From the NCBI GenBank assembly GCA_963748805.1, contig CAVVLH010000006.1, positions 36,186 to 100,185 on the forward strand: 64,000 nucleotides of DNA, read 5' to 3'. The first letter of the stretch is position 1; each line of letters opens with the position of its first letter. Below, piece after piece: positions 6,910-51,703 of the stretch. The notes beneath the pieces are model-generated. The model saw only the letters and a program-made list of their open reading frames with translations. It was not told the DNA's origin and made no database searches. The translations under genes and the position numbers were made by a program. Source of the DNA: an uncultured Alphaproteobacteria bacterium. GTDB taxonomy: Bacteria; Pseudomonadota; Alphaproteobacteria; Rhizobiales; Xanthobacteraceae.

Positions 6910-9178
<2,269 letters not shown>

Positions 9179-18044: not shown

Positions 18045-19022
18045 ATGAAGATTACGCGAAGGGCTCTATTGGGCGGTGTCGCAGCCGGAGCGGCATTCGG
18101 TCCGGCTATCGCTGCGTCTTCAACCGGGACGTGGCCGGCCCGTCCGGTGCGGATGATTTCGACCTATGCCGCCGGCGGCTCCAGCGACATTTCGCTGCGT
18201 ATCCTGGCCGAGTATTTCGAAGGCCGGATGGGCCAGAAATTCTTCGTCGAAAACAGACCAGGCGCGGGTTCGACGATTGCCAACCAGACGGTGGCACGGG
18301 CCGAGCCGGACGGCTACACGTTCCTGTATGCGGCGGCACCTTATGAAACGGCCGAAGCCATGTTCGGCAAGCTCAGCTACGACCCGCACAAGGATCTGCG
18401 TCCCATTGCGATGGCGATGATCGTCCCGCTATTTCTGATCGTCAACGCCAACGCACCTTACAAGACCCTCAAGGAGTTCGTCGCGTTCGCGAAATCAAAG
18501 CCGGACGGCGTAACGTTCGCAACGCCGACGCCTGGCAATCAACCGCATCTCGCCGCAGAACTATTCATGAGAACCGCCGGCTTCAAAGGCGTCGCCGTGC
18601 ACTTCGGCGGCGATGCCCCGGCCTACGTCGAACTTCTGGCCGGGCGTGTCGATGCGACCACCACCGCGCTGCCTGCGGCGCTGCCCCACATCAAGGCCGG
18701 TACCCTGCGCGTGCTCGGGTGTTTTTCCGATCAGCGCAGTTCCGTCTATCCGGAAGCCGCAACGCTGCGCGAACAGGGCGAAGACGTCGTCTCGCTCGGC
18801 TGGTACGGCTTCATGGCGCCGGCGGCGACACCGGGTCCCATCGTCGAGCGGATGCAATCCGAAATCGCTTTGGCCCTCGCCGATCCGACGATCAAGGAAA
18901 AGCTCGCCGTGCAGGGTCTCGATGCACACTATCTGCCGGGCGTGGAGTTCGGACAATTCATCGACCGCGAGAGCGAGAAGTGGGGCAAGATCATTCGCGA
19001 CGCCGGAATCAACAAGCCGTAA
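18045..19022 (+). CDS. Tripartite tricarboxylate transporter substrate-binding protein (Bug/TctC)
   Basis: Tat-like TRRALL leader; WPARPVRMI, AAGGSSD, VENRPGAG, PDGYT motifs. Confidence 0.93.
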   Translation: MKITRRALLGGVAAGAAFGPAIAASSTGTWPARPVRMISTYAAGGSSDISLRILAEYFEGRMGQKFFVENRPGAGSTIANQTVARAEPDGYTFLYAAAPYETAEAMFGKLSYDPHKDLRPIAMAMIVPLFLIVNANAPYKTLKEFVAFAKSKPDGVTFATPTPGNQPHLAAELFMRTAGFKGVAVHFGGDAPAYVELLAGRVDATTTALPAALPHIKAGTLRVLGCFSDQRSSVYPEAATLREQGEDVVSLGWYGFMAPAATPGPIVERMQSEIALALADPTIKEKLAVQGLDAHYLPGVEFGQFIDRESEKWGKIIRDAGINKP

Positions 19023-37429: not shown

Positions 37430-37596
37430 CTAGTGTGGCAACTCTGACGTTCCTTTCAGGGCCACCGTGAGTTCTTCGAAGGAACGTCAAAGTCAAAGCC
37501 ACACTAAAATCATATGGTTGCTAGTGTCCCTTTGGTTCTGACATTCGTAAAAGTTGCCGCCGCGATAGGATACGAATGTCAGAACCGGGACACTAG
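37430..37596. repeat. CTAG-bounded twin-hairpin composite element (hairpins 37430-37507 and 37521-37596)
   Basis: ctagtgtggc..ctgacgttcc/ggaacgtca..caaa-gccacacta, a 13-bp core, then ctagtgtccc-ttt-ggttctgacattcgt/acgaatgtcagaacc-gggacactag. Confidence 0.8.
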
Positions 37597-37618
37597 GGTG
37601 GTGGCAGGAAACCGTCGC

Positions 37619-39698
37619 ATGCTCTCCTCCACTGCCCAAAATTTCGCCTATCAGCAGACCCTCGTCGCATTTGCAGGTGCCGTGTGCCTGTTCGGCACCT
37701 GGATTGGTATGCGCCACTTCGCCCGCGCCCGCGCCACCGAAGGCGCGACCCGGCGCGGCTGGCTGTTCATGGCTTCCGTCGGCACCGGCGTGGCGCTGTG
37801 GGCCTCGACCTTCATCTCGATCTTGGCGCTCGATCCCTTGCTGACCAGCGGATTTGAACCGGTCGCCACCGGCGCGGTCCTCGTCATCGCGGTCGTCGCC
37901 TGTTTTGTCGGCTTTGAGATCGGCAGCCGGCACTTTACCCTCGCACCGGAAACCGGCGGCCTTGCGATGGGCGTCGGCATCGTTGCGATGCATCTGGTGG
38001 GTTTCAACGCCTGGCATATCAAGGGCAGTTTCGAGTGGAACGCCTATGGCCTGGCCACGACTCTTGTGCTCGGACTGGGCTTGAGCGCACTCGCCGTCAA
38101 CCGCGCCAACCGTCCGGTCACACGCTGGTGCCGCCATGGCGCCGCCATCGTGCTCGCTTTCATGATCTGCGTCATGCACTACGCGCTGACTGCTTCGGTC
38201 GCGGCTGTACCTGATGCCTCCGTGATTCTGCGGGCTGACCTCGTGCCCGCCGATACACTTGGCATCGCCGTGGTCGCAGCCGTTCTCCTGGTCATGGGCA
38301 ACGGCTTTTCGACCTATATCATCGACCTGCGCGCCCGCACCGAGTTCGGCCGACCGCATCCACCAATTGTCGTTCAACGACACCATGACCGGGCTGCCCA
38401 ACCGCATCGCCTTCAACGAGCGGCTCGCCTTTGACAGCGCCGAGGCTCACGAAAAGGCGCACAAGCTCGCGGCCTTCTCGATCGACCTCGACGGCTTCAA
38501 GGACATCAACGATCTCTATGGCCACGGCGCCGGCGACCTGCTCCTGATCGACGTGGCGACACGGATGTGCAAGCGGCTTGCGCCGGGTGAATTCCTGGCG
38601 CGCCAAAGCGGCGATGAATTCCTGGCCTTGACGACCTCACGCAATCACCCGGATGACGCCTATGCGTTTGCGGAGCGGATCTCGCAGGCCTTCGCCGAGC
38701 CCTTTACGGTTCAAGGCTACGCCGTCCGCCTCACCGCCTCGATCGGCTTTTCGGTGTTTCCGACCGATACGCCGGAGCGCGACCAGTTGCTCAGCAACGC
38801 CAAGCTCGCGATGCACCGGGGCAAGAGCGGGCAATCCGGCTCGATCTGCATGTACAGCCCCGAAATGGACGACAGCGCCCGCAAGCGCCGCGCGCTCGCC
38901 CGCGATCTCGAACATGCGGCGGAGCGCCACGAACTGCTGTTGAACTATCAGCTCCAGATGTCGCTCAATGACGGCAAGATCTGCGGCGCCGAAGCCTTGA
39001 TGCGATGGAAGCATCCGAAACTCGGCATGGTTTCGCCGGCGGAATTCATTCCGCTGGCCGAAGAAACCGAGGCGATCTTCGAAATGGGCGAATGGGCGCT
39101 GCGCGCCGCCTGCCGCGACGCTGCGGAGGGAAAAATTCCCGGAAACGTCGCGGTCAACCTCTCGCCGGTCCAGTTCGGCCGCGAGGATCTGGCCGAGATG
39201 ATCCACGGCATCCTGCTGGAAACCGGCCTGCCGCCGGCGCGTCTTGAGGTCGAGGTCACGGAATCGACCATCATGTCGGACCAGAGCCGCGGCCTGCACA
39301 TCCTGCGCAAGCTGAAAGCCATGGGCATCACGGTGGCGATGGATGATTTCGGCACCGGCTATTCGTCGCTGGCGACGCTGCACGCCTTCCCGTTCGACAA
39401 GATCAAGCTCGACCAGTCCTTCGTCAAACGGCTGCCGCACGATGCGGCCGCTGCCGCCATCGTCCGTACCGTGCTGGCGCTCGGCGAAAGCCTGCGCATG
39501 CCGGTTCTGGCCGAGGGTATCGAGACCGAGGCGCAATGGGATTTCCTGGCGCGCGCCGGCTGCGCCAAGGGCCAGGGCTATCTGTTTGCAAGACCGGCGG
39601 CGGTGTCGCAATTGTCCACTGTGATCAGCGCGGCGGCCCGATTTACCCGCGAGGCGCTGCCGGCGGCCGACGTCGAGCACGCCACCGTCGCGGCGTAG
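37619..39698 (+). pseudogene. MHYT-GGDEF-EAL c-di-GMP signalling protein, +1 frameshift near 38345 (real lesion or sequencing error)
   Basis: MHYT motifs (IVAMHLVG, VMHYAL) in one frame; DTMTGLPNR, SGDEF, EAL and DDFGTGYSS in the next; removing one T from GAGTTCGGCC gives RTESADRIHQL. Confidence 0.88.
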
Positions 39699-40657: not shown

Positions 40658-40703
40658 GCCGCCGAAGGGCTGTTAAGTGATCCACCGGAAAGCTTTCAAA
40701 ATC

Positions 40704-41615
40704 ATGCGCAAAGCGTTGACCGCACTTTGGCCCTCCGGTTTGTGCGTGGTGCTCGTTTGTCTGGCGCAGACGGCATGGACGGCCGAAACTACGCCGGCGT
40801 GGCATGCTGATCTTGCCGAAATCCGCCAGGTCGCCGGGATGATCCCGGGGCCTCGGCCGCTGCGCGTCAACGTGGTCAAATTCGCCGAGAGCCGGCGCAC
40901 GAAGAATTTCGCGGTCAAGGGGCTGCCGGCCGAGCCGAGCGTGCAGGCGCGCACCGCCTATCAGATCGTTTATGCCGACGGCACCATCATGGTCGATACG
41001 GGCATGGATCTCGCCACCCATCGCTTCTTCGGCCGCGGCGTCGATGAGCCGTACTTTCCGGAAACCGAGGCGCGCGTGGCCTTCGCTTTGCAAAAAGCAA
41101 AGGCGATCATCGTCACCCATGAGCATGGCGACCACATTGCCGGCCTGATCAAGAGCCCGTCTTTCAACGAACTCGCGCCGAAGACCGTGCTGACGCGCGC
41201 GCAACTGGAGACGCTGCTTGGCGAGCCACAGATGCCGGAGCTGCGGCCGACGCCCGAGATGGCGTCGCGCCTTCGGGTGATCGACTACACCAACACGATG
41301 GCGTTTGCGCCGGGCATCGCGCTGATCAAGGCGCCCGGCCACACGCCGGGTTCGCAGATGGTCTATGTCGCCCTGCAATCGGGCAAGGAATTACTGCTGG
41401 CCGGCGATGTCGCCTGGCACATGGACGGCGTGCGCTTGAACAGAGGCAAGGACGCGCCGTGGATCAAGGAGCCGGCGGAGCTGATGGCCGCCGAGCTCGA
41501 CTGGCTCAACGGCCTCAGCCAAACCGGACACAACCTGTCGATCGTCATCAGCCACGATGAAGAGCAACGCCGCGCCTATATCGAGCAAGGCGTGCTCGGC
41601 GACGGATTCGAGTGA
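40704..41615 (+). CDS. Secreted metallo-beta-lactamase-fold hydrolase
   Basis: Signal peptide; VDTG, THEHGDH, APGHTPGS, LAGD, SHD. Confidence 0.9.
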   Translation: MRKALTALWPSGLCVVLVCLAQTAWTAETTPAWHADLAEIRQVAGMIPGPRPLRVNVVKFAESRRTKNFAVKGLPAEPSVQARTAYQIVYADGTIMVDTGMDLATHRFFGRGVDEPYFPETEARVAFALQKAKAIIVTHEHGDHIAGLIKSPSFNELAPKTVLTRAQLETLLGEPQMPELRPTPEMASRLRVIDYTNTMAFAPGIALIKAPGHTPGSQMVYVALQSGKELLLAGDVAWHMDGVRLNRGKDAPWIKEPAELMAAELDWLNGLSQTGHNLSIVISHDEEQRRAYIEQGVLGDGFE

Positions 41616-41686
41616 CACGTGACCGGCGCCCCGTCACGAGAGAAATGACAAGGGCGCCGTCGCTGCGGATGCGGTCGCGATGCCCC

Positions 41687-43769
41687 TCAGTGCCACATGT
41701 GCTCGAATTGATGATGGTGACCGAAGCCGTGATCGGAGAACTCGTTGCCTCCGGTCTCCACGATGGGCGGAGTTCCATTGCTCCCCTGGCCCGCCGGCGC
41801 CGCCGTTGCCGGCACCACATGCCCCACCGTTACCTGCACCGTTGCCACCAGCCGCGCTGCCGGAGTTACCGCTGATCGCCGCCGTCAACGTCGCGACGGC
41901 CGCGCTGATCGCGCTCGAATGACCGCCCTCCAGGGCCTGCACCAGACTGGCGATATCGCCGGCGATCGCACTCGAAAGCGCTGACGTCGAAGTACCCCCT
42001 GAAATCGGTCCCGGAACCGGAGCCGCCAGAACCGGAGCCGCCGGCCGTGTGACCGGCATTCGGATCCGGATTCGAGACCCCAAAACCGTTATTGGCCAAT
42101 CCGTCGACCGGATTTGCCGTTGGGTTATCGTTACCATCAACCGCGCCGGAAACGGGAACGGTGGTGCCCGCGGTAGCGGCGCCTGTCGTGGTGGCACCCG
42201 CGACAGTCGTCGCAGTGCCCACGAATGAGCCGCCTCCGGTCGGCAAATTGTTGCCTGAGACGTCATTGGCGTCGGCGACAAATCCAACTCCCGCCGCGAC
42301 CAGCTGAGCTGCGTTGGTTGCGTTCAGACCGTTGGCCTCGACGCTTTGCAGCGCGGACACCGCATTCGCGGTATCCGTCTTGAGCGTGCCAGATAGCAAT
42401 TCATTGTCGAACCGGTCACCGAAGACCCCGCCTTGCGAACCGGTGAAGCTCGCCCCAAACTCGTTGTAATTATTGATCTGAGTGATCAGCGACTGGACCT
42501 CCGAAGCGGTCGGCTGAACCGTCCCGTTGGCAATACCGCCAAGCGTCGTGTTCAACTGATTGGCTTCCGCAATGAACTGTGACCAGAAATTGGTTTGAGC
42601 CTGGTTGTCCTGAAATTGCAGAATGGTGCCGCCGTGGTCGTTCACCCCGCCGATGCCGTTGAGATAGCCGGGCATCTCACCAAATCCGCCCGTACTCGCG
42701 CCGAACGTCTGATTTGGCTGCGCGCCGTTGTTGGCAACCGAAACATCGCCGGCCGCGGTCGCCAAGGCCGCATCGTTATTCACGATATCGACGATGTCGA
42801 GAATGTTGTCATTCGTCGATCGGGCGGCGTCGTTGGGATTGGTCGCATACATCGGGTCGAACTTGTTGATCTGAAGTTCAACCTGATTGAGCGCCGTTTC
42901 GAGATGAATCGTCGTCAGGGCCTGTTCCTGCTGAGCCGTCAGCGCCTGCCCTTGCGGAGACATGCCCGCCTGCTCATTCGCCTCGATGCCTGCGAGTGCC
43001 GTTGGACTGTTGAGGATGTTTGTAAGGCCCGTCACCACCGCCTGCATGTCGGTGTTGAACTCGGTGAGATTGTTCGCATTCAATCCCCCCACCTCGAGAT
43101 CGTGGGCAGCGTTGAAGACGGAACCGATCTGCGCAAGCGTCGGAGGCGCCGCGGCTGAACCCTCGGCCGATGCGGAGACTTCGCGGCTGAATCGCTTCCC
43201 GTCGGCAGCGCCTGGAACCCTACATTGGTAAAGCCGGTCCCGCTTTGATACGCCGCCCCGTTCAACGCGCTTGCCAGCGTGGCATCACCGTTCACCTCCG
43301 ACAGAATTTGCTGTTGAGTAAGCGCGATCGTTCCTTGCGCCGCTACCTCCGCCGCGCTGTTGCCAACCGACAGCGGCGCCTCATGCTGTAGCGTCGCCAA
43401 CTGACCCTGAATCGTCTGAAGTTCGGTAATCAAGGCCGGATCTGTAATCGCCTGACCGCCAACGGTAATTGCATTCGGATTCGCCAGCATCGCGCTGACA
43501 TCAGCCTGCACGGCGTTGACGTCTTGCAGATACATCGGCTCGTAGGGCTGTTCGTTGCTGCCGCTTGCCGCCTCGATCGCCGTCGAACCTGTCCAGAGCC
43601 CGCCATCGGAAAGGCGGACCGCGTCGTTGAAGACCGCGCCGGCCTGCGCCAGATCGGTCGACGTGTTCAAAGCGCTTTCAATCGTCGTCGCGTAGTTGTT
43701 GCCGACCTGGGTGATCGATACCCCATCCAGCCCTTCGGTATCCCGGATCGTCGTTGGAACTGTGATCAT
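41687..43769 (-). pseudogene. Large acidic helical/Gly-rich protein, probable T1SS substrate; three single-base indels (~43182, ~42002, ~41789)
   Basis: GAGAGG RBS; four consecutive frame segments join into one ~690-aa ORF ending DHGFGHHHQFEHMWH-TGA at 41687; no signal peptide; very few Lys/Arg. Confidence 0.75.
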
Positions 43770-44200
43770 GATGTCCTCTCTTACGCTGGCCCGCTGCCCC
43801 CGGTCAGCTTATGAAATACGTGAGATCAGGCGCATGGTGCCGGCAGGCCAAGCATCGCCTCGTAACAGCAAGCGCATTGTTTGCGGCGACTGTGTCAGGT
43901 TGGCGGCCTTGAGATGCCACAGCTCGGGTATTGTCTGGACGATAATGAACTGACAACGAAGCGTCTGCGAGCAAGCCGCTGCGCCCGGACATGCGACAAC
44001 GGTTCGCCGCCATCCTCGTGCCTCGAAATCACACTCACTCCGTCACCGATGTCACAATGCGGCGAAACAAACGTCACGGGGCGGGATGGAAATGTGCCTG
44101 CAAGGTTCGAAAAATAAGGCGGCGCCATCTGCCGGCTGCGCGAACGGACAATGTTCCGCTCGCGTCGGATTGTGGCAAATATCGAAATTACGAAAACGAT

Positions 44201-46117
44201 TTACTGCTCGACGAAAGCCCGGCGCATCTGATCGGCGATCGGCTTGAACAGATAGCTCATCATCGTCCTGCTCCGCGTCTGCATGAAAACTTCGGCAGGC
44301 ATTCCAGGCACGAGCTGTTGACCGGCGAGTCGCCGGCGTTCCTGGTCCGACAGGACAACTCTCACCGTAAAGTAAGGCGCGTTGGTCTGCTGGTCACGGC
44401 TCGTGTCGGCCGAAACATAGGAGACGGAGCCGGTGAGTTGCGGCGTCACGCGCTGATTGAAAGCCGAAAACCGGACAAAGGCCGATTGGCCGGTGCGCAC
44501 CTGGTCGATGTCCTTGGGCTGCAACCGCGCCTCGATCTGCAAGTCTTCGGTATCAGGAACGATTTCCATGATGGTATCGCCGGCGCGGATGACCCCGCCG
44601 ATGGTGTGCGCGGCAAGCTGGTGAACGATACCGGCCACCGGCGCGTGGATCTCGATGCGGTCGAGCAGGTCGCGCGCCGAAACGCTGCGTTCGACAAGTT
44701 CGGCCTCCTTGCCCTGGGCTTCGCCAAGCTCTTTCACGACATCGGTGCGAAAATCCTGATCGGCGCGGACCATCTGCAACTGAGTCTCGCCGATCTTCGA
44801 TTTCGTCTCGGCGATTGACGAGACGATCTGCCCGCGCTCGCCGTCGATCCGCGCGGATTCCCGCTGCAACGTCGTCAGCCGGGTCAGCGGAACCAGGTGC
44901 TTGTCATACAGCTCCTGCACGCCGGTCAGCTCGCCCGCAATCAGCTCCAGTTGCCTGGCCTTGGAATCAAGCTGGGCCTGTAAGCCCACGATCTCCTCGG
45001 TCAATTGCGCAACCTTGCCCTGCAACAGATCTTTCTGGCTTTGGCGCGCGGTCAGACGAGCCTTGAACAGCGAATCTTCCGACGCCAGCAGGCTTTTCAC
45101 TGTGTCGTTGCCCGATCGCGATGCGAGCCCCGCGGGAACTTCTATGCGAGCAAGACCATCGCGCTCGGCCACGAGACGAGCGATCTTCGCCCCCAACTCA
45201 TCGAGCTGCTTGCTCACCATTTGCAAGCCGGCACGCGCCTGGGTCGCGTCCAGCCGCAACAGCAGCTCGCCCGGCTGCACCCGGCTGCCATCCTGCACAC
45301 CGATTTCGGCGACAATGCCTCCGGTCGGATGCTGGATATTCTTGACATTCGATTGCACGACGAGATTGCCGGGAACGACGACCGCGCCTGCGAGCGGCAC
45401 GAACGCCGCCCACCCTCCACCCAGAATCCCGCCGACGAGGAGAACCCGCAGGCCGACGCGCAGTTCGTGTTCGAACGCCCATCGAACGCCCGTCTGCAAG
45501 CTGTCATCGGCCGCATCCGCAGGAGGCAAAGCGCCGTCACGATCGAGAATAAAGGCGGCGCCGGCCACCAGACCGTTACGGCACTGGCCGATCAGCTCCA
45601 TAACCGCCGCGTTGGGCTTCGGCGGGGCGGCGGATGCGACAATGCGCTCGCCTTCAATTTCGGACGGAGGCGAATCCTCGTGCGCGGTCATGTCTGGCGC
45701 GGGATGACGCAGATCCATATACACCGGATCGCTCTGGAAGATCGGCGGACTCTGCCCGTGCAGCGGCGGCACGGCCGACTCGACCGACGGATTGCTGCGG
45801 CTATCAGCCTGGACGGGAGGATTGATGCCAAACGACTTCAGGCAGATGTCAATCGCAAGCTTGACCGTGCTCTTTGGCTTTCGCCTCGGACGCAGCGGCT
45901 GTGGTTTGCGAGGCGCTTGACGTTTCCGCGCCTCACCGCGCCCGGACGGGCCGGCTGGACGCCGACCGTCGCCGCGCTCACCGTCGAGCGCCTGGCGCAA
46001 ACGCTGAAGTTCGAGGATGAGCGCCTCCCCCTGTGGTCCGACGCGGTCCACACCCGGCTCGCCACTCCCGTTCCGATCAGATCCGTCGAGATGTCGATGA
46101 TCCCTTGAGTACGGCAT
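44201..46117 (-). CDS. HlyD/PrtE family type I secretion membrane fusion protein with a long N-terminal extension
   Basis: GAVV.PG....SNVK.IQHPTGG.V, LLRLD.T, I.AP.AG.V, LVPGMPAEVF..T..RT..SY; ATG 2 bp after the ATPase stop. Confidence 0.92.
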   Translation of the reverse strand: MPYSRDHRHLDGSDRNGSGEPGVDRVGPQGEALILELQRLRQALDGERGDGRRPAGPSGRGEARKRQAPRKPQPLRPRRKPKSTVKLAIDICLKSFGINPPVQADSRSNPSVESAVPPLHGQSPPIFQSDPVYMDLRHPAPDMTAHEDSPPSEIEGERIVASAAPPKPNAAVMELIGQCRNGLVAGAAFILDRDGALPPADAADDSLQTGVRWAFEHELRVGLRVLLVGGILGGGWAAFVPLAGAVVVPGNLVVQSNVKNIQHPTGGIVAEIGVQDGSRVQPGELLLRLDATQARAGLQMVSKQLDELGAKIARLVAERDGLARIEVPAGLASRSGNDTVKSLLASEDSLFKARLTARQSQKDLLQGKVAQLTEEIVGLQAQLDSKARQLELIAGELTGVQELYDKHLVPLTRLTTLQRESARIDGERGQIVSSIAETKSKIGETQLQMVRADQDFRTDVVKELGEAQGKEAELVERSVSARDLLDRIEIHAPVAGIVHQLAAHTIGGVIRAGDTIMEIVPDTEDLQIEARLQPKDIDQVRTGQSAFVRFSAFNQRVTPQLTGSVSYVSADTSRDQQTNAPYFTVRVVLSDQERRRLAGQQLVPGMPAEVFMQTRSRTMMSYLFKPIADQMRRAFVEQ

Positions 46118-46119
46118 GA

Positions 46120-47940
46120 CTAGACACGCTCTGGCGCTGTGGCGTGGCGCGGAGCGGGGCCAGGCGCGGTGCGCGGCTGCGGCCGGACTGGCGCACTTTG
46201 CGTCCTGGAGCCACCGACGCGGGCAAACACCTCCTGGCACGAACCGAAGGCGATCGACTTTCCTTCGTAAAGCACGAGAGCCATGTCCAAGGCGGCAATC
46301 ACGCTTGGACGATGCGATATCACGATCACGATGCTCTTGTTCTGCCGCAGGATCTGAATGGCGCGGCTCAACGCGTTCTCGCCGTCGGTATCCAGATTGG
46401 CGTTGGGCTCGTCGAGCACGACCAGAAACGGATCGCCATAGACCGCGCGTGCCAGTCCTACTCTTTGCCGCTGGCCCGCCGACAGCGAAGAGCCGCTCTG
46501 ACCGATCTGGGTCGAATAGCCGTTGGGCAACCGCACGATGAGATCGTGCACGCCCGAGATCTGCGCCGCCTTTATAATCGCCTCTGAAGTCGCGCCCTCG
46601 TCGAAACGACAGATATTTTCGGCGATCGTACCGTCAAACAGAGCGACGTCTTGCGGCAAATAGCCGATATGCCGTCCGAGATCCTCGCTTCGCCACTGAT
46701 CGATCGCCGCGCCATCAAGTCGAACCGCCCCGCCCTTGGCCGGCCAAATTCCGACCAGCGCCTTGGAGAGCGAAGTCTTGCCGGATGCGCTGGCTCCGAG
46801 CAGGGCCAATCCCATGCCGGCCTTGAGCGAGAAGCTGACGCTCGAGACGATGGGCATGTCGGTAGCGGGTGCGGTAACCGTGAGCTGCTGGACCGCGAGT
46901 TCGCGGCACGGACGCGCCAGATGAACTGCCGGAACAGGAGGTCTCGCCGTTACCTTGCAAACCTCGCGCAGCCGCGCGATGCCCTGGCGTGCGGCGACAA
47001 GCTGCTTCCAGCTGGATAATGCGACCTCGACCGGCGCCAACGCCCGTCCCATCATGATCGACGAAGCGATCATGATGCCGCCGGAGGCGCTGTCGGTGAC
47101 CACCAGATACGCCCCCATCCCCAACATGCCGGATTGCAGGACATAACGCAGCACCTTGGCACCCGAGCCTAGATTGGCGAAGAGGTCGCTGGCGCGCATG
47201 TTTTCCCGCAGGTATCGCTCGTTCGATTGCGACCACCGCGCCTTGAATCGATCCGTCATGCCGAGCGCACGAATCACCTCGGCATTGCGCTGGATGGTGC
47301 CCAAGAGCTCCTGCCGCTGAGCGCTGGATTCTGTCGCGGACTTCGCCGCATCGCGCGACAGGCGCTCGGTCAGGAACATCATGGCCACGATGGACGCGGT
47401 CCCGATCAGCGCGGTGACGCCGATCGCGGGATGAAACAGAAACAGTCCAATCAGGAAAATGGGAATCCAGGGCATGTCCAGGAACGCCGTCGGCCCCATG
47501 CCCGACATGAAGGCACGAACCTGCTCGAGATCACGCGACGGCTGCTGCATCGCCGACGGTTTCACGCCGCGAAGCGGCAGCGTCACCAACGCATTGTGGA
47601 TCGCCTCCTGAAGGCCGACATCGAAAAGCGTCGCCACACGGCACAACATGCGTGATCGCAGCGCTTCGAAATATCCCTGTATCAGGTAGGCCAGCAGCAC
47701 CATCAGCGAGAGACCCGACAGTGTTGCGAGATTCCGGCTCGGAATGACGCGGTCGTAGACCTGGAGCATGTAGAGAGAGCCGGACAGCATCAACAGATTG
47801 ATCACGCCGCTGAACGCGGCGATGCCGGTCATTCGTCGCGCGCTCTCCCGCAAACCGTGCAAGACCGGATCACCCGCCGCCGAGGCAGCCAGCAGACTGC
47901 GCGGGCCGAACCGTAACGTCTGTCGCAAACGATCCTGCAC
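46120..47940 (-). CDS. Type I secretion ABC permease/ATPase (PrtD/AprD type, no C39 domain)
   Basis: INLLML.GSLYMLQVYDRV, FLD.PW.P.F, GASASGKT, LSAGQRQR, VLDEPNANLD; GTG start with AAGGAG RBS. Confidence 0.94.
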   Translation of the reverse strand: MQDRLRQTLRFGPRSLLAASAAGDPVLHGLRESARRMTGIAAFSGVINLLMLSGSLYMLQVYDRVIPSRNLATLSGLSLMVLLAYLIQGYFEALRSRMLCRVATLFDVGLQEAIHNALVTLPLRGVKPSAMQQPSRDLEQVRAFMSGMGPTAFLDMPWIPIFLIGLFLFHPAIGVTALIGTASIVAMMFLTERLSRDAAKSATESSAQRQELLGTIQRNAEVIRALGMTDRFKARWSQSNERYLRENMRASDLFANLGSGAKVLRYVLQSGMLGMGAYLVVTDSASGGIMIASSIMMGRALAPVEVALSSWKQLVAARQGIARLREVCKVTARPPVPAVHLARPCRELAVQQLTVTAPATDMPIVSSVSFSLKAGMGLALLGASASGKTSLSKALVGIWPAKGGAVRLDGAAIDQWRSEDLGRHIGYLPQDVALFDGTIAENICRFDEGATSEAIIKAAQISGVHDLIVRLPNGYSTQIGQSGSSLSAGQRQRVGLARAVYGDPFLVVLDEPNANLDTDGENALSRAIQILRQNKSIVIVISHRPSVIAALDMALVLYEGKSIAFGSCQEVFARVGGSRTQSAPVRPQPRTAPGPAPRHATAPERV

Positions 47941-48062
47941 GGTGTTCCCCTCTCCTTCGTCTCCTCGTCGTGCGCCAGTCCAATTTTCTTTTGGCGACAG
48001 ATGCTGTCCATTTTCCGGCAGCAATTGGACCGTAGACAGTCGCTGCTGCGGCTTTCTGGCCG

Positions 48063-48231
48063 CGAGTGCCCACTTTCCGAAGTTCGTGCTCCATTGCGGC
48101 ACCCACCGTCACGAACTTCGGAAAGTCATGGGCACTCGTAAGCTTATTGATTCTAGTACCGCTTCATCGATCTGAAGTCCTTGATCGAATTCGCGGCTGG
48201 TGGTGCAGGGACTTCAGATCGGCGGTACTAG
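48063..48231. repeat. CTAG-bounded twin-hairpin composite element (hairpins 48063-48138 and 48153-48231)
   Basis: cgagtgccc-actttccgaagttcgtg/cacgaacttcggaaagt-cat-gggcactcg, a 14-bp core with GATTC, then ctagtaccgc..gatctgaagtcc/ggacttcagatc-ggcggtactag. Confidence 0.78.
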
Positions 48232-48857: not shown

Positions 48858-50669
48858 GTGAGACAACGCAGGACCGACTACGGCACAATCTTCTTGCACT
48901 GGCTGCTTGTCGCAGCCATCGGGGCCGCTTTCGTCAGCGGGCTTCGTATCGCAACGGAGGCGCCAAGCCGAACGTGGATCAATCTGTTCGACGTGCTGTT
49001 GCCGCGGGCCAATGTCTGGACCCTGCACATCGAAGCGGCGGTGGCACTGGTCGCGATTGCGGTCGCCTATACGGTCTATTTGACCCGATCCGGCCTGAGC
49101 CGCCGCGTGCAACTGGACAAGATTCGCCTGCGTGCCCTGATAGGACGAAAGCAGGGCCGGCTTGGTGCGGTCAGCGTCCTGCTTTCGTGGTTCTTCTTCC
49201 TCACCATGGCAATCCTGATCGTCAGCGGCGGCCTTCTCTATTTTGGCCTGCTCGCGGGCCAAAGTGTTGCGGCCGCACATTGGTGGGCGAGCTGGGCAAT
49301 TCCGGTCTTCACTTGCCTGCATATCCTTGTCCAGATTCTGATCGGCGGGACGTCGCAGCTTCTTCGTATTTTTCGTCCCGGACCCCTGCCGCCCCCTCCG
49401 CCTCGCCTTGATGCCGTGGAGCTGCTCACACTGCTCGCCGAACAGTCCGGGCAACCGGCAGCACAACCGCGGCAGCAGCCGCAGCGAAAGCCGAAAAGTG
49501 GCAGCCCGGCAAGGCAGCGCGACGTCACCCTGCAAGCGAACCCTCTCATCGTTGCAACGTCGGTCGCGATCCTGGGCACCTGGGTCATGATCGCGACGGA
49601 CTGGCTGATGGTCGACGGCTTGCGCATCCACCGCGTCTCCAGCGCGCAGGCTCCGATTCTTGACGGCGACACCTCCGATCCGGTCTGGCGCAACATCCAG
49701 CCGTTCTCCGTGATGACCAATCAGGGCGACAATTTCGACGGCAAGGGCGAAACCAGGATCAACATTCGCGCGGTGCATGACGGCGTCTGGGCGTATTTCC
49801 TGTTCGACTGGGAGGATCCGACGCGGTCGTTGAAGCAACTGCCGCTCATCAAGCGGGCTGACGGCTGGCAACTGCTGCATGACGGCTATGAGAGGGGCGA
49901 CGAGCACGCCTTCAATGAAGACAAGTTCGCTGTCCTGTTTACGACGCTGGACCTGACGCTGGCGGGCGACCACACCTTCCATGCGGGTCCGCAGCCGATC
50001 GACGGTGCGCCCCAGACCATGACCGGAAGAGGCTTGCACTACACATCCGCTGCCGGAGTTTACGCCGACGTGTGGCAATGGAAGGCCACCAGCACCGGCC
50101 CAAGCGGCTGGATGGACGATGATCATTTCGGTCCGCCGCTCGAGCCTACCCCCGCGCAATTACAAAACGCCGCTCCCTACCGGGGCGGGTTCGAGCCCGA
50201 CCCTGGCACCGCGAACTATTCCAGCAATTTCGACGCGACGCTGGATCCGGCAGACCGCGATCAAGTGGTGAGGCCGCGGCGTCTGCCGAAAGATCTCGCC
50301 ACGACGTCAGCGGCCATGGGCGCCATCGATCTCGATCCGGAGGTCGGCGAGAACGACGGCGCGCGCTGGTTCATGACGGAGGTCGATTCCGTTCCTTATA
50401 CGAAAGAGATGGACCGTCAGATCCCCGTCGGCACCGTCATTCCCGGGGTCATCATCTCCGGGGATTTTTCAGGCGACCGCGCCGACGTTCGATGCGCCGG
50501 GCGATGGGCCTCCGGACATTGGTCGCTCGAGGTCGCGCGGCGCCTCGATACGCACAGCCAATTCGACGTGCCGATCAAGACGGGCGTCTTCATGCGCGTC
50601 GCGGCATTCGACCACAGCCAGATCGCACATACGCGGCATGTCCGGCCCATTCGTATTGAGGTGGAGTAA
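48858..50669 (+). CDS. Di-heme cytochrome b fused to an ethylbenzene-dehydrogenase-gamma/DOMON-like heme-binding domain
   Basis: Four TM His (FLHW, TLHI, AAHW, CLHI); a fifth TM; then P.LDG...DP.W, F.WEDPT, EDKFAV, D.WQWKA, WSLEVARRL.T. Confidence 0.82.
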   Translation: MRQRRTDYGTIFLHWLLVAAIGAAFVSGLRIATEAPSRTWINLFDVLLPRANVWTLHIEAAVALVAIAVAYTVYLTRSGLSRRVQLDKIRLRALIGRKQGRLGAVSVLLSWFFFLTMAILIVSGGLLYFGLLAGQSVAAAHWWASWAIPVFTCLHILVQILIGGTSQLLRIFRPGPLPPPPPRLDAVELLTLLAEQSGQPAAQPRQQPQRKPKSGSPARQRDVTLQANPLIVATSVAILGTWVMIATDWLMVDGLRIHRVSSAQAPILDGDTSDPVWRNIQPFSVMTNQGDNFDGKGETRINIRAVHDGVWAYFLFDWEDPTRSLKQLPLIKRADGWQLLHDGYERGDEHAFNEDKFAVLFTTLDLTLAGDHTFHAGPQPIDGAPQTMTGRGLHYTSAAGVYADVWQWKATSTGPSGWMDDDHFGPPLEPTPAQLQNAAPYRGGFEPDPGTANYSSNFDATLDPADRDQVVRPRRLPKDLATTSAAMGAIDLDPEVGENDGARWFMTEVDSVPYTKEMDRQIPVGTVIPGVIISGDFSGDRADVRCAGRWASGHWSLEVARRLDTHSQFDVPIKTGVFMRVAAFDHSQIAHTRHVRPIRIEVE

Positions 50670-51703
50670 TGACAAAGATTTGCAAGGTGACCTTCAACAA
50701 AGAGACCTTTCTGATGAATTGCGGTGATCTCCTGCTCGACGGCGCGCTGATGAGCGGCGTCGATCTGCCCTACGATTGCCGCAGCGGCATTTGCGGGTCC
50801 TGCCGGGTGCGTCTTGAGGAAGGCAAGGTATTCGGCGGCACCGATGAGAGCAGCGACATGATCCACGCCTGTCAAGCGCGGGTCGTCTCCGATCTCAAAG
50901 TGGTCGCCGAGCCTACACCAGATCCGGTTTCGATACCGGCGCGGGTGTCCGAAATGGTCCGGCTCGCGCCCGATGTCATCGGCGTCGGCCTCGAGCTCCA
51001 GCAGCCATTCCGGCATCTGCCGGGCCAATATTGCAAATTGCAATTCCGCGGTTTCGCGGAACGATGCTATAGCGCGACCTACCCCCTCGAAGGCGCCCCG
51101 AATAATCGCCGGCTGCATTTTCACATCCGCCGCCTGCCGGACGGCGCCGTATCATCGGCGCTCGGAAGCAAGATCTGTGTTGGCCATCGCGTCAGGCTGT
51201 CGGGCCCGTTCGGCAGTGCATTCCATCGGCGCGAACATCATGGTCGCATGGTCCTGGTCGCCAGCGGGACGGGGTTCGCACCGATGTGGGCGATCGCGGC
51301 CGCCGCCATCACCGAGCGGCCGCAGCGCGAGCTGACCTTTGTGGTCGCCACCCGAAAGCTGAAGTCGTTCTACATGCACAGCGCGTTGTGCCGGCTGGCA
51401 CGATTTCCCAATGTCACCATCGTTCCCGTCGTATCGGAACCGCAGAGCGTCTCGTTTGCCATCAGAAGCGGACGACCGGTCGACTACCTGCCTGAACTGT
51501 CGCCGGAAGACATCGTCTATACGGCGGGTGCGCCCGCCATGACCGACGCTGTGGCAGAGATCGCGAAGGCGGCGGGCGCCAGATGCTACACGGACCCGTT
51601 CTCGCCTAACGATCAAGGCGGAGATTCCTCCGGCCTGATGGCGCGTTTCGTCGGCTGGCTCGACGGTTCCAGAAAGAGCCCCGAAGTTCTGCACGCCGCT
51701 TGA
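50669..51703 (+). CDS. 2Fe-2S ferredoxin:FAD/NAD(P)H oxidoreductase
   Basis: CRSGICGSC...ACQ cluster motif, RCYS (FAD), GPFG, ASGTGFAP; TAATG overlap with the upstream gene. Confidence 0.92.
   Translation: MTKICKVTFNKETFLMNCGDLLLDGALMSGVDLPYDCRSGICGSCRVRLEEGKVFGGTDESSDMIHACQARVVSDLKVVAEPTPDPVSIPARVSEMVRLAPDVIGVGLELQQPFRHLPGQYCKLQFRGFAERCYSATYPLEGAPNNRRLHFHIRRLPDGAVSSALGSKICVGHRVRLSGPFGSAFHRREHHGRMVLVASGTGFAPMWAIAAAAITERPQRELTFVVATRKLKSFYMHSALCRLARFPNVTIVPVVSEPQSVSFAIRSGRPVDYLPELSPEDIVYTAGAPAMTDAVAEIAKAAGARCYTDPFSPNDQGGDSSGLMARFVGWLDGSRKSPEVLHAA

Follow-up and report, generated by a model that had tools for sequence, protein, structure and literature searches.

In a 64,000-nt stretch of contig CAVVLH010000006.1 (positions 36,186 to 100,185 of the forward strand; hereafter the window), which comes from the genome of an uncultured alphaproteobacterium of the family Xanthobacteraceae, three minus-strand open reading frames (ORFs) between 43769 and 41687 are pieces of one gene of ~690 residues. 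Its product, referred to below as the cargo, belongs to an uncharacterised family of mainly Bradyrhizobium/Xanthobacteraceae soil bacteria, is encoded next to genes for a PrtD-type T1SS (type I secretion system) and ends in a conserved His/Trp motif. The explanation that best covers these observations, and that we hold to be reasonably probable as a whole, is that the gene is intact in the organism and encodes a dedicated T1SS cargo, recognised through its tail, with an extracytoplasmic redox or metal role.

Reconstruction of the split gene and the cargo family

The three pieces occupy positions 43769-43080 (229 aa), 43092-41866 (408 aa) and 41848-41687 (53 aa). Three-frame translation shows that the coding sense changes frame near 43180, 42004 and 41793, and bridging these three changes yields a single read-through of 693-695 aa. 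Database searches with the read-through retrieved 628 relatives, the best of which are 690-693 aa long and 88-95% identical over 100% of the query, and this validates the reconstructed reading. Intact orthologues occur in many soil metagenomes and in metagenome-assembled genomes (MAGs) of Bradyrhizobium; uninterrupted copies are present, for example, in loci L019-L022, which are three JGI metagenome contigs and one Bradyrhizobium MAG. Moreover, when a homologue from the same genus is used as a tblastn query, the match switches frame exactly at the first junction of the window gene.

Segment A of the gene (43184-43769, minus strand), delimited by the ORF list, frame translation and orthologue alignment, starts with an ATG at 43769-43767 and encodes residues ~1-195, including the first helical bundle (D1) with the motif LAQAGAVFNDAVRLSDGGL; the corresponding helices of the orthologue P0003 are predicted at residues 40-171 (confidence ~90). 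By direct reading, the ATG is preceded at a distance of 4 nt by the Shine-Dalgarno-like sequence GAGAGGA (43774-43780, minus strand), which is kept in L019-L023. Translation, alignment and structure prediction assign to segment B (42005-43179, minus strand) bundles D2 and D3, the conserved blocks RSTNDNILDIVDIVNND, QFQDNQAQTNFW and GDRFDNELLSGT, and the first part of a Gly/Ser linker. Within segment C lies an amphipathic helical hairpin, TSTSALSSAIAGDIASLVQALEGG...AVATLTAAISGN (41865-41993, minus strand; predicted helices 595-631, confidence ~88), which members of the close subfamily have and others lack (e.g. P0042 and P0109). The gene ends with the His/aromatic tail DHGFGHHHQFEHMWH and the stop codon (41687-41734, minus strand), FEHMWH being read directly at 41707-41690 and TGA at 41689-41687. 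A promoter and terminator scan of 41500-44300 returned nothing above chance.

The read-through has only two Lys and four Arg residues against 60 Asp and Glu, and the orthologue P0003 has K2, R4, D35, E25 and C0; the protein is very acidic and Cys-free. Direct reading of the N-terminus, MITVPTTIRDTEGLDG, reveals no hydrophobic signal-like core. There is no GGxGxD in the window read-through, neither GGxGxD nor GGxGx[DN] in P0003, and no match to RTX families in Pfam. The motifs LAQAGAVFNDAVRLSDGGL and LAQIGSVFNAAHDLEVGGL are both present in the window cargo and conserved throughout the family. D1 and D2 each open with L-A-Q-x-G-x-V-F-N-x-A and are detectably homologous (tblastn E = 1.6e-7), although this relationship is visible only across homologues and self-BLAST of P0003 finds no long internal repeat.

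The structure of P0003 was predicted with AlphaFold2 from a 32-sequence alignment (mean predicted local distance difference test score, pLDDT, 73; predicted template modelling score, pTM, 0.69). The model comprises three helical bundles (residues ~30-171, 195-338 and 389-505; pLDDT ~90), a disordered Gly/Ser/Thr-rich linker (530-594), the helical hairpin (595-631) and a disordered tail (635-691). The first-pass annotation, made from the letters of the window without database searches, had described much of this: one protein across the split ORFs, about two Lys and four Arg, no signal peptide, no GGxGxD, an internal repeat, amphipathic helices and a Gly/Ser linker. All of these points were upheld, the last two both in translation and in the predicted model of P0003.

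Pfam and NCBIfam models produced no family match for the three ORF pieces, for P0003 or for 32 diverse members, and the family profile had 0 matches at E <= 10 against all PDB sequences. When the AlphaFold2 model was compared with the PDB by Foldseek, nothing but helical bundles of a generic kind (vinculin, talin, Cry domain I) was returned, each with E > 0.1. When 1.84 billion cluster representatives were searched exhaustively, 198 clusters were collected, all of them belonging to the cargo family and many of them fragments; the family comprises at least 198 clusters at 50% identity plus hundreds of soil sequences. Its members are labelled 'hypothetical' or, wrongly, 'trimeric autotransporter adhesin' (some members in JGI). 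We rejected the latter label, given that no Pfam domain was found in the 32 members and that the protein is predicted to be all-alpha with a disordered C-terminus. Several polar blocks are conserved family-wide, namely, H288, RSTNDNxLDxxDIxNND, QDNQAQTNFW, GDRFDNELLSGT and DVSGNNLP. Their conservation suggests a putative binding or catalytic site.

Module number varies within the family. In addition to the standard form, there are a one-module form lacking D1 (G018, 397 aa), a two-module form (G023, 1102 aa) and a three-module form (L039, open frame of 1614 aa). The 397-aa variant (locus L097, G018:C12, 9686-10879), which lacks the first bundle, retains the ending ...HHFHHMWG and is located between the T1SS genes and the redox operon described below; it escaped the protein search with the window ORF.

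Nature of the frame breaks

At the first junction (J1; 43175-43181, minus strand, GAAGTCTCC) the window carries two single-base surpluses, at ~43181 and ~43175, compared with GAGCCTC or GAGCCTT in five relatives. Without both surplus bases J1 would read GAGTC, i.e. a GANTC site. The second junction (J2) is an extra T at 42004, minus strand (GATTTC versus GATTC in L019-L022 and L024), which abolishes a GANTC site through one duplicated base and is also present in L023, an independent long-read MAG ~9% divergent from the window. The third (J3) falls in a Gly-rich low-complexity repeat, GGCGGGCCAGGGG (41788-41800, minus strand), where the exact base cannot be placed; near 41793 the window differs from L019, L022 and L024 by a net -2, equivalent to +1. 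The corrections proposed earlier were therefore revised: the missing G assumed at ~43182 is replaced by the two surplus bases of J1, and, of the two extra bases assumed at ~42002 and ~41789, the former stands as the T at 42004 and the latter becomes the net -2 near 41793.

The restored frame contains no in-frame stop and no large deletion. Differences from L019 at codon positions 1/2/3 number 7/3/29, 13/3/88, 1/0/13 and 1/2/6 in the four restored segments. GANTC is the CcrM methylation motif of Alphaproteobacteria, and comparable breaks are found beyond the cargo gene. About 4 kb away, a MHYT-GGDEF-EAL gene (37514-39698, plus strand) is split at ~38346 by one extra base into ORFs of 306 and 479 aa; the sequence at the break is GAGTTC in the window and the GANTC site GAGTC in the relative L023. 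Similarly, five of eight frameshift sites in the ABC (ATP-binding cassette), adaptor and cargo genes of MFD long-read MAG loci lie on GAAGTC, GAACTC, GAGTTC or GATTTC.

Genome-wide, frameshift-like events were counted with a self-trained frame hidden Markov model in the source genome (G000; 5.76 Mb, 128 contigs). It contains 188 such events (32.6 per Mb), a rate ~6.5 times higher than in two complete genomes of the same genus (4 events in 800 kb, 5 per Mb). As many as 43.6% of the G000 events lie within 60 nt of GANTTC or GAANTC versus 25-27% of random sites (binomial P = 4e-7), while three control motifs of the same shape show no enrichment near these events. The one-extra-base type accounts for 78% of all events and for 85% of the motif-associated ones. 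These data suggest systematic one-base insertions at CcrM sites in a long-read assembly. The model also flags a further same-strand frame change in the window at ~8866 (ORF 6910-8967, minus strand). The ABC and adaptor genes adjoining the cargo gene have zero net frameshift compared with their relatives.

Taken together, the predominance of third-position substitutions, the GANTC signature, the extra T common to L023, the genome-wide excess of events and the unbroken ABC and adaptor genes lead us to favour assembly error over decay. The breaks are likely to be base-calling or assembly insertions, which long-read MAGs typically show at CcrM GANTC sites and within G-rich repeats, and the gene is probably intact in the organism itself; its 'hidden' state most probably reflects the assembly, not biology. 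Several observations do not sit easily with this reading. Even by the standard of G000, three to four indels in 2.1 kb are a local excess (given the genome-wide rate, Poisson P ~ 5e-5). J3 lies away from GANTC sites, and most GANTC sites within the window are unbroken. In addition, a TolC-family gene elsewhere in the genome (G000:C2:18109-19357, TIGR01844 above cut-off) is likewise in two frames, split near 18273, and has no GANTC-type motif there.

Some of the same observations would be expected if the window copy were a genuine, recently inactivated pseudogene with real frameshifts and a protein no longer made: three separate breaks fall within 2.1 kb and none in the flanking ABC and adaptor genes, J3 lies outside any GANTC site, and cargo loss does occur in the family. 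We nevertheless give this alternative a clearly smaller, though not negligible, share of our confidence, since a decaying gene accounts poorly for a restored frame free of stops and large deletions, for third-position-dominated substitutions in every restored segment, for the duplicated-base GANTC signature that J1 and J2 share with other broken genes of G000 and of known long-read MAGs, and for the strong one-extra-base bias with which events accumulate in G000 relative to finished congeners. Programmed ribosomal frameshifting that regulates synthesis of the full-length cargo could be invoked for J2, the extra T being common to two assemblies that are ~9% divergent. However, orthologues free of any interruption number in the dozens, none of the three sites has a slippery heptamer or a stimulatory context, and what is common to J2 in both assemblies, each of which carries many broken genes, is the GANTC motif. 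Three shifts of mixed sign would also be needed in one gene, which to our knowledge is unprecedented. Based on the uninterrupted orthologues and the lack of slippery sites, we rejected programmed frameshifting as highly improbable.

A real case of cargo loss is provided by locus L048, in which an intact ABC-adaptor pair and the redox operon are followed by only an 89-aa cargo remnant (7989-8258). The remnant consists of the N-terminal motif fused to a low-complexity region and lacks the terminal motif. More generally, one-base insertions at CcrM GANTC sites in G000 and related long-read MAGs appear to split real genes, and 'hidden' or 'pseudo' genes in such genomes call for read-level confirmation.

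Type I secretion genes and the C-terminal tail

Directly upstream of the cargo gene, on the same strand, are genes for an ABC transporter and an adaptor, as the first-pass annotation had recognised in calling them prtD/prtE-like. The first (46120-48102, minus strand) encodes a PrtD-type T1SS ABC permease/ATPase without a C39/CLD domain (TIGR01842, 660.6 bits with a cut-off of 510, residues 86-628); its orthologues are called at 629 aa, and the true start is probably near 48009. HlyB- and LssB-type models score far below their cut-offs on this protein, which leaves no room for a C39/CLD domain and is therefore grouped with HasD, LipB and PrtD, the exporters among which the non-RTX cargo HasA has its own (PMC8277102). 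The second (44201-46240, minus strand) encodes a HlyD-family T1SS periplasmic adaptor (TIGR01843, 381.3 bits with a cut-off of 209, residues 260-678), whose orthologues are called at 638 aa with the AprE domains PF25994/PF26002 and whose true start is probably near 46117. The adaptor has an unusually long N-terminal cytoplasmic extension of ~215-255 aa, which is rich in Pro/Arg/Lys and Asp/Glu and is also present in relatives (563-639 aa); this extension might contact the very acidic cargo. No TolC-type channel is encoded in the operon, and two TIGR01844 matches above cut-off are located elsewhere in the genome.

The ABC-adaptor-cargo adjacency is maintained in ~24 of ~31 informative loci, including those with cargoes only 28-32% identical, and thus linkage to T1SS genes, the lack of which among homologues would have spoken against the original proposal of a T1SS substrate, persists down to ~30% identity. 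A cultured carrier of the arrangement is Bradyrhizobium sp. STM 3562 (locus L041; NZ_CP120694.1, at about 3.431-3.448 Mb), whose homologue has ~529 aa. In locus L013 (G023:C253, 1782-3902), a TibC-like family-9 glycosyltransferase-TPR fusion is encoded between the adaptor and the two-module 1102-aa cargo, and a third homologue follows. This order suggests that the two-module cargo may be glycosylated before export.

The cargo terminus follows the pattern [F/L/Y]-[E/H]-x-hydrophobic-W-[H/G](HA/HG), with His residues before it, and is kept down to ~30% identity; examples are FEHMWH, FELMWHHA, FEHVWHHG, HHFHHMWG, HHHHHHMWA and GHFAHLWG. Of 147 long members, 112 fit a strict regular expression, and near-variants are found in most others. 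The tail is retained in the one-, two- and three-module variants, the 397-aa form among them, and its Trp is placed 2-4 residues from the end of the chain. Conservation is otherwise lacking in the C-terminal ~150 residues, so that the extreme terminus is their most conserved part. Such a fixed end position is what would be expected of a T1SS C-terminal signal.

Judging from gene order, motif conservation and a cargo-like make-up (acidic, Cys-free, with neither RTX repeats nor a signal peptide), the protein is most likely a dedicated substrate of the adjacent PrtD-type ABC/HlyD-type adaptor T1SS. The system would be completed by a TolC-like channel encoded elsewhere. Export would take place in a single step, with the cargo still unfolded and left uncleaved. 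Recognition would be through the C-terminal region of the cargo, the F-E-x-x-W-H terminus providing specificity; once outside, the protein would form three acidic helical bundles and work in an extracytoplasmic redox or metal-handling process. Certain findings count against this scheme. Members L032-L034, L037, L014 and L018 have no T1SS genes within 8 kb. In described T1SS signals, L/D/A/V/T/S/I/F are over-represented and the final residues are [FLI][VAI] (PMC8861453), whereas the cargo tail has many H, M and W residues and its end is H, HA or G. Furthermore, a search for the pattern H-F-E-x-h-W-H in 401 genomes of the family produced 8 matches versus 9 for the reversed control, and only three of the eight are C-terminal, all in the cargo family itself. 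There is therefore no sign of the tail on other types of cargo: in these 401 genomes the strict tail is C-terminal on no other protein family, so that a modular signal role is at most putative.

Accordingly, we considered whether the His/Trp terminus serves instead for metal or haem binding or for docking, e.g. to the EB_dh haem domain or a surface receptor, with the T1SS reading other C-terminal features. The His clusters (HHH; HHHHHH in L018) and the invariant Trp do resemble ligand or metal sites more closely than they do the known composition of T1SS signals (PMC8861453), and the redox operon is co-conserved with the cargo. Against this, the motif stands 0-2 residues from the end in every architecture, a placement that is typical of T1SS signals and needless for a metal site, and the preceding ~100 residues are disordered and unconserved. 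We regard a tail without signal function as rather unlikely; signal and binding roles are not mutually exclusive. A different alternative is that the cargo is a structural surface or matrix protein, i.e. an S-layer- or adhesin-like T1SS cargo, and that the redox operon is functionally unrelated. Such a role would suit the acidic, Cys-free composition rich in A/G/T/N/S, the variation in module number (1, 2 or 3 copies in G018, G023 and L039) and the TibC-like heptosyltransferase-TPR gene between adaptor and cargo in G023, an arrangement known for glycosylated adhesins; the JGI label of some members as trimeric autotransporter adhesins points the same way. Yet no adhesin, S-layer or autotransporter domain was detected, the predicted helical bundles have no PDB analogue, and the redox operon co-occurs with the cargo in 8 of 8 genomes and stays adjacent through rearrangements. 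A purely structural role is, in our estimation, quite improbable compared with that of a dedicated cargo acting in redox or metal chemistry.

A T1SS with an adjacent non-RTX cargo is a known type of system. ABC exporters that lack a C39/CLD domain are already known to have non-RTX cargoes, HasA/HasD being the textbook case (PMC8277102), and for this reason the 'new class' of T1SS substrate put forward in the first-pass annotation was an overstatement, although the cargo family and the kind of tail are new. The metal or haem binding suggested there is conjectural. As in the HasA-HasD/HasE/HasF system of Serratia, the cargo lacks RTX repeats and an N-terminal signal and would not be cleaved (PMC8277102), the ABC protein has no extra N-terminal domain and the cargo is encoded beside the ABC and adaptor genes; by analogy, a metal or haem role is conceivable for the family. 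However, there is no sequence or fold similarity to HasA (0 profile matches to PDB sequences at E <= 10; no Foldseek hit below E = 0.1), and HasA is a ~19 kDa alpha/beta protein, whereas the cargo has 690 residues, is predicted to be all-alpha and carries another tail motif. The resemblance to the PrtDEF/AprDEF exporters of serralysins and lipases lies in the ABC subfamily (TIGR01842 above cut-off), the AprE-type adaptor domains and a conserved extreme C-terminus as candidate recognition element. The cargoes of those exporters have RTX nonapeptides and a C-terminal acidic-plus-hydrophobic motif and end in [FLI][VAI] (PMC8861453), whereas the cargo family is without RTX and ends in W-H, W-H-H-A or M-W-G. 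The PrsDE substrates of Rhizobium leguminosarum (Rap adhesins, PlyA/PlyB glycanases) are likewise alphaproteobacterial soil or rhizosphere T1SS cargoes, several of them without classical RTX arrays (PMC9298526). In contrast to the Rap proteins, which consist of Ra/CHDL cadherin-like beta domains, the cargo is predicted to be helical and no such domain was detected in it; moreover, the PrsDE exporter is shared by its substrates, whereas the cargo family is found in a dedicated one-cargo operon.

A co-conserved redox operon and possible function

Divergently transcribed from the ABC gene is a two-gene redox operon. Its first gene (48858-50669, plus strand) encodes a 603-aa fusion of a membrane cytochrome b561 with an EB_dh domain, a DOMON-like haem domain (PF01292, PF09459), and the second (50669-51703, plus strand) a 344-aa 2Fe-2S/FAD/NAD(P)H protein of the ferredoxin-reductase type (PF00111, PF00970, PF00175). 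The window lacks the small ferredoxin gene that L019-L021 have beside the reductase. According to the neighbourhood census, the redox operon accompanies the T1SS-cargo unit in 24 loci, and the five genes are still grouped in four differing arrangements (L015; L016/L017; L024; L043). Among 41 related genomes, the cargo and the cytochrome b561-EB_dh protein are both present in the same eight and in no other (Fisher P = 1e-8). The co-conserved operon gives the best hint at the function of the cargo and was overlooked in the first-pass annotation.

By its domain content the operon would be a bacterial CYBDOM-like trans-membrane electron conduit. Plant CYBDOM proteins are trans-membrane ferric reductases, and the window gene resembles them in fusing cytochrome b561-type membrane and DOMON-superfamily haem domains (PF01292 + PF09459), an architecture that moves electrons across the membrane to an extracytoplasmic acceptor (PMC10784544, PMC10784552). 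It differs in that the bacterial b561 is PF01292 rather than a member of the eukaryotic CYB561 family, and its electrons presumably come from the adjacent Fer2-FAD-NAD protein, not from ascorbate. Literature searches returned no description of the cargo family, of its terminal motif or of a pairing with an electron-transfer operon, and we know of no description of a CYBDOM-like protein linked to a T1SS cargo.

Because the T1SS-cargo unit is co-inherited with the redox operon and adjacent to it, an extracytoplasmic redox or metal-handling role is probable. That the cargo is functionally tied to the cytochrome b561-DOMON/reductase conduit itself, e.g. in extracytoplasmic metal or redox chemistry, is a tentative proposal drawn from gene context, which we hold to be possible rather than probable. 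One consideration speaks against direct contact: a T1SS cargo would be found outside the outer membrane and the EB_dh domain would be periplasmic, which makes a direct electron-transfer partnership topologically awkward. In a more specific and correspondingly doubtful scenario, the cargo would be the secreted partner of the conduit (NAD(P)H -> FAD/2Fe-2S -> cytochrome b561 -> DOMON-like haem), its terminus acting both as export signal and as metal or haem site, and the five genes would constitute a previously undescribed module by which soil Bradyrhizobium captures or reduces iron or another metal outside the cell. No match to the iron control element TTTAGAA-N3-TTCTAAA occurs within the window.

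On the other side of the cargo gene, and converging on it, is a gene for a metallo-beta-lactamase-fold protein (40677-41615, plus strand), whose similarity to AiiA/AidB-type lactonases is weak and scores far under the cut-offs. Relatives do not share this neighbour; in them, the cargo gene is followed by genes for a 2-hydroxyacid dehydrogenase and a TRAP transporter.

If the explanation favoured here is true, the cargo proteins represent a new, easily recognised family of non-RTX T1SS cargoes. Their F-E-x-x-W-H terminus, unlike described T1SS signals, would then offer a handle on cargo recognition by PrtD-type exporters, and their co-inheritance with a cytochrome b561-DOMON/ferredoxin-reductase operon would indicate that free-living Bradyrhizobium has an extracytoplasmic function in redox or metal chemistry that is as yet unstudied.

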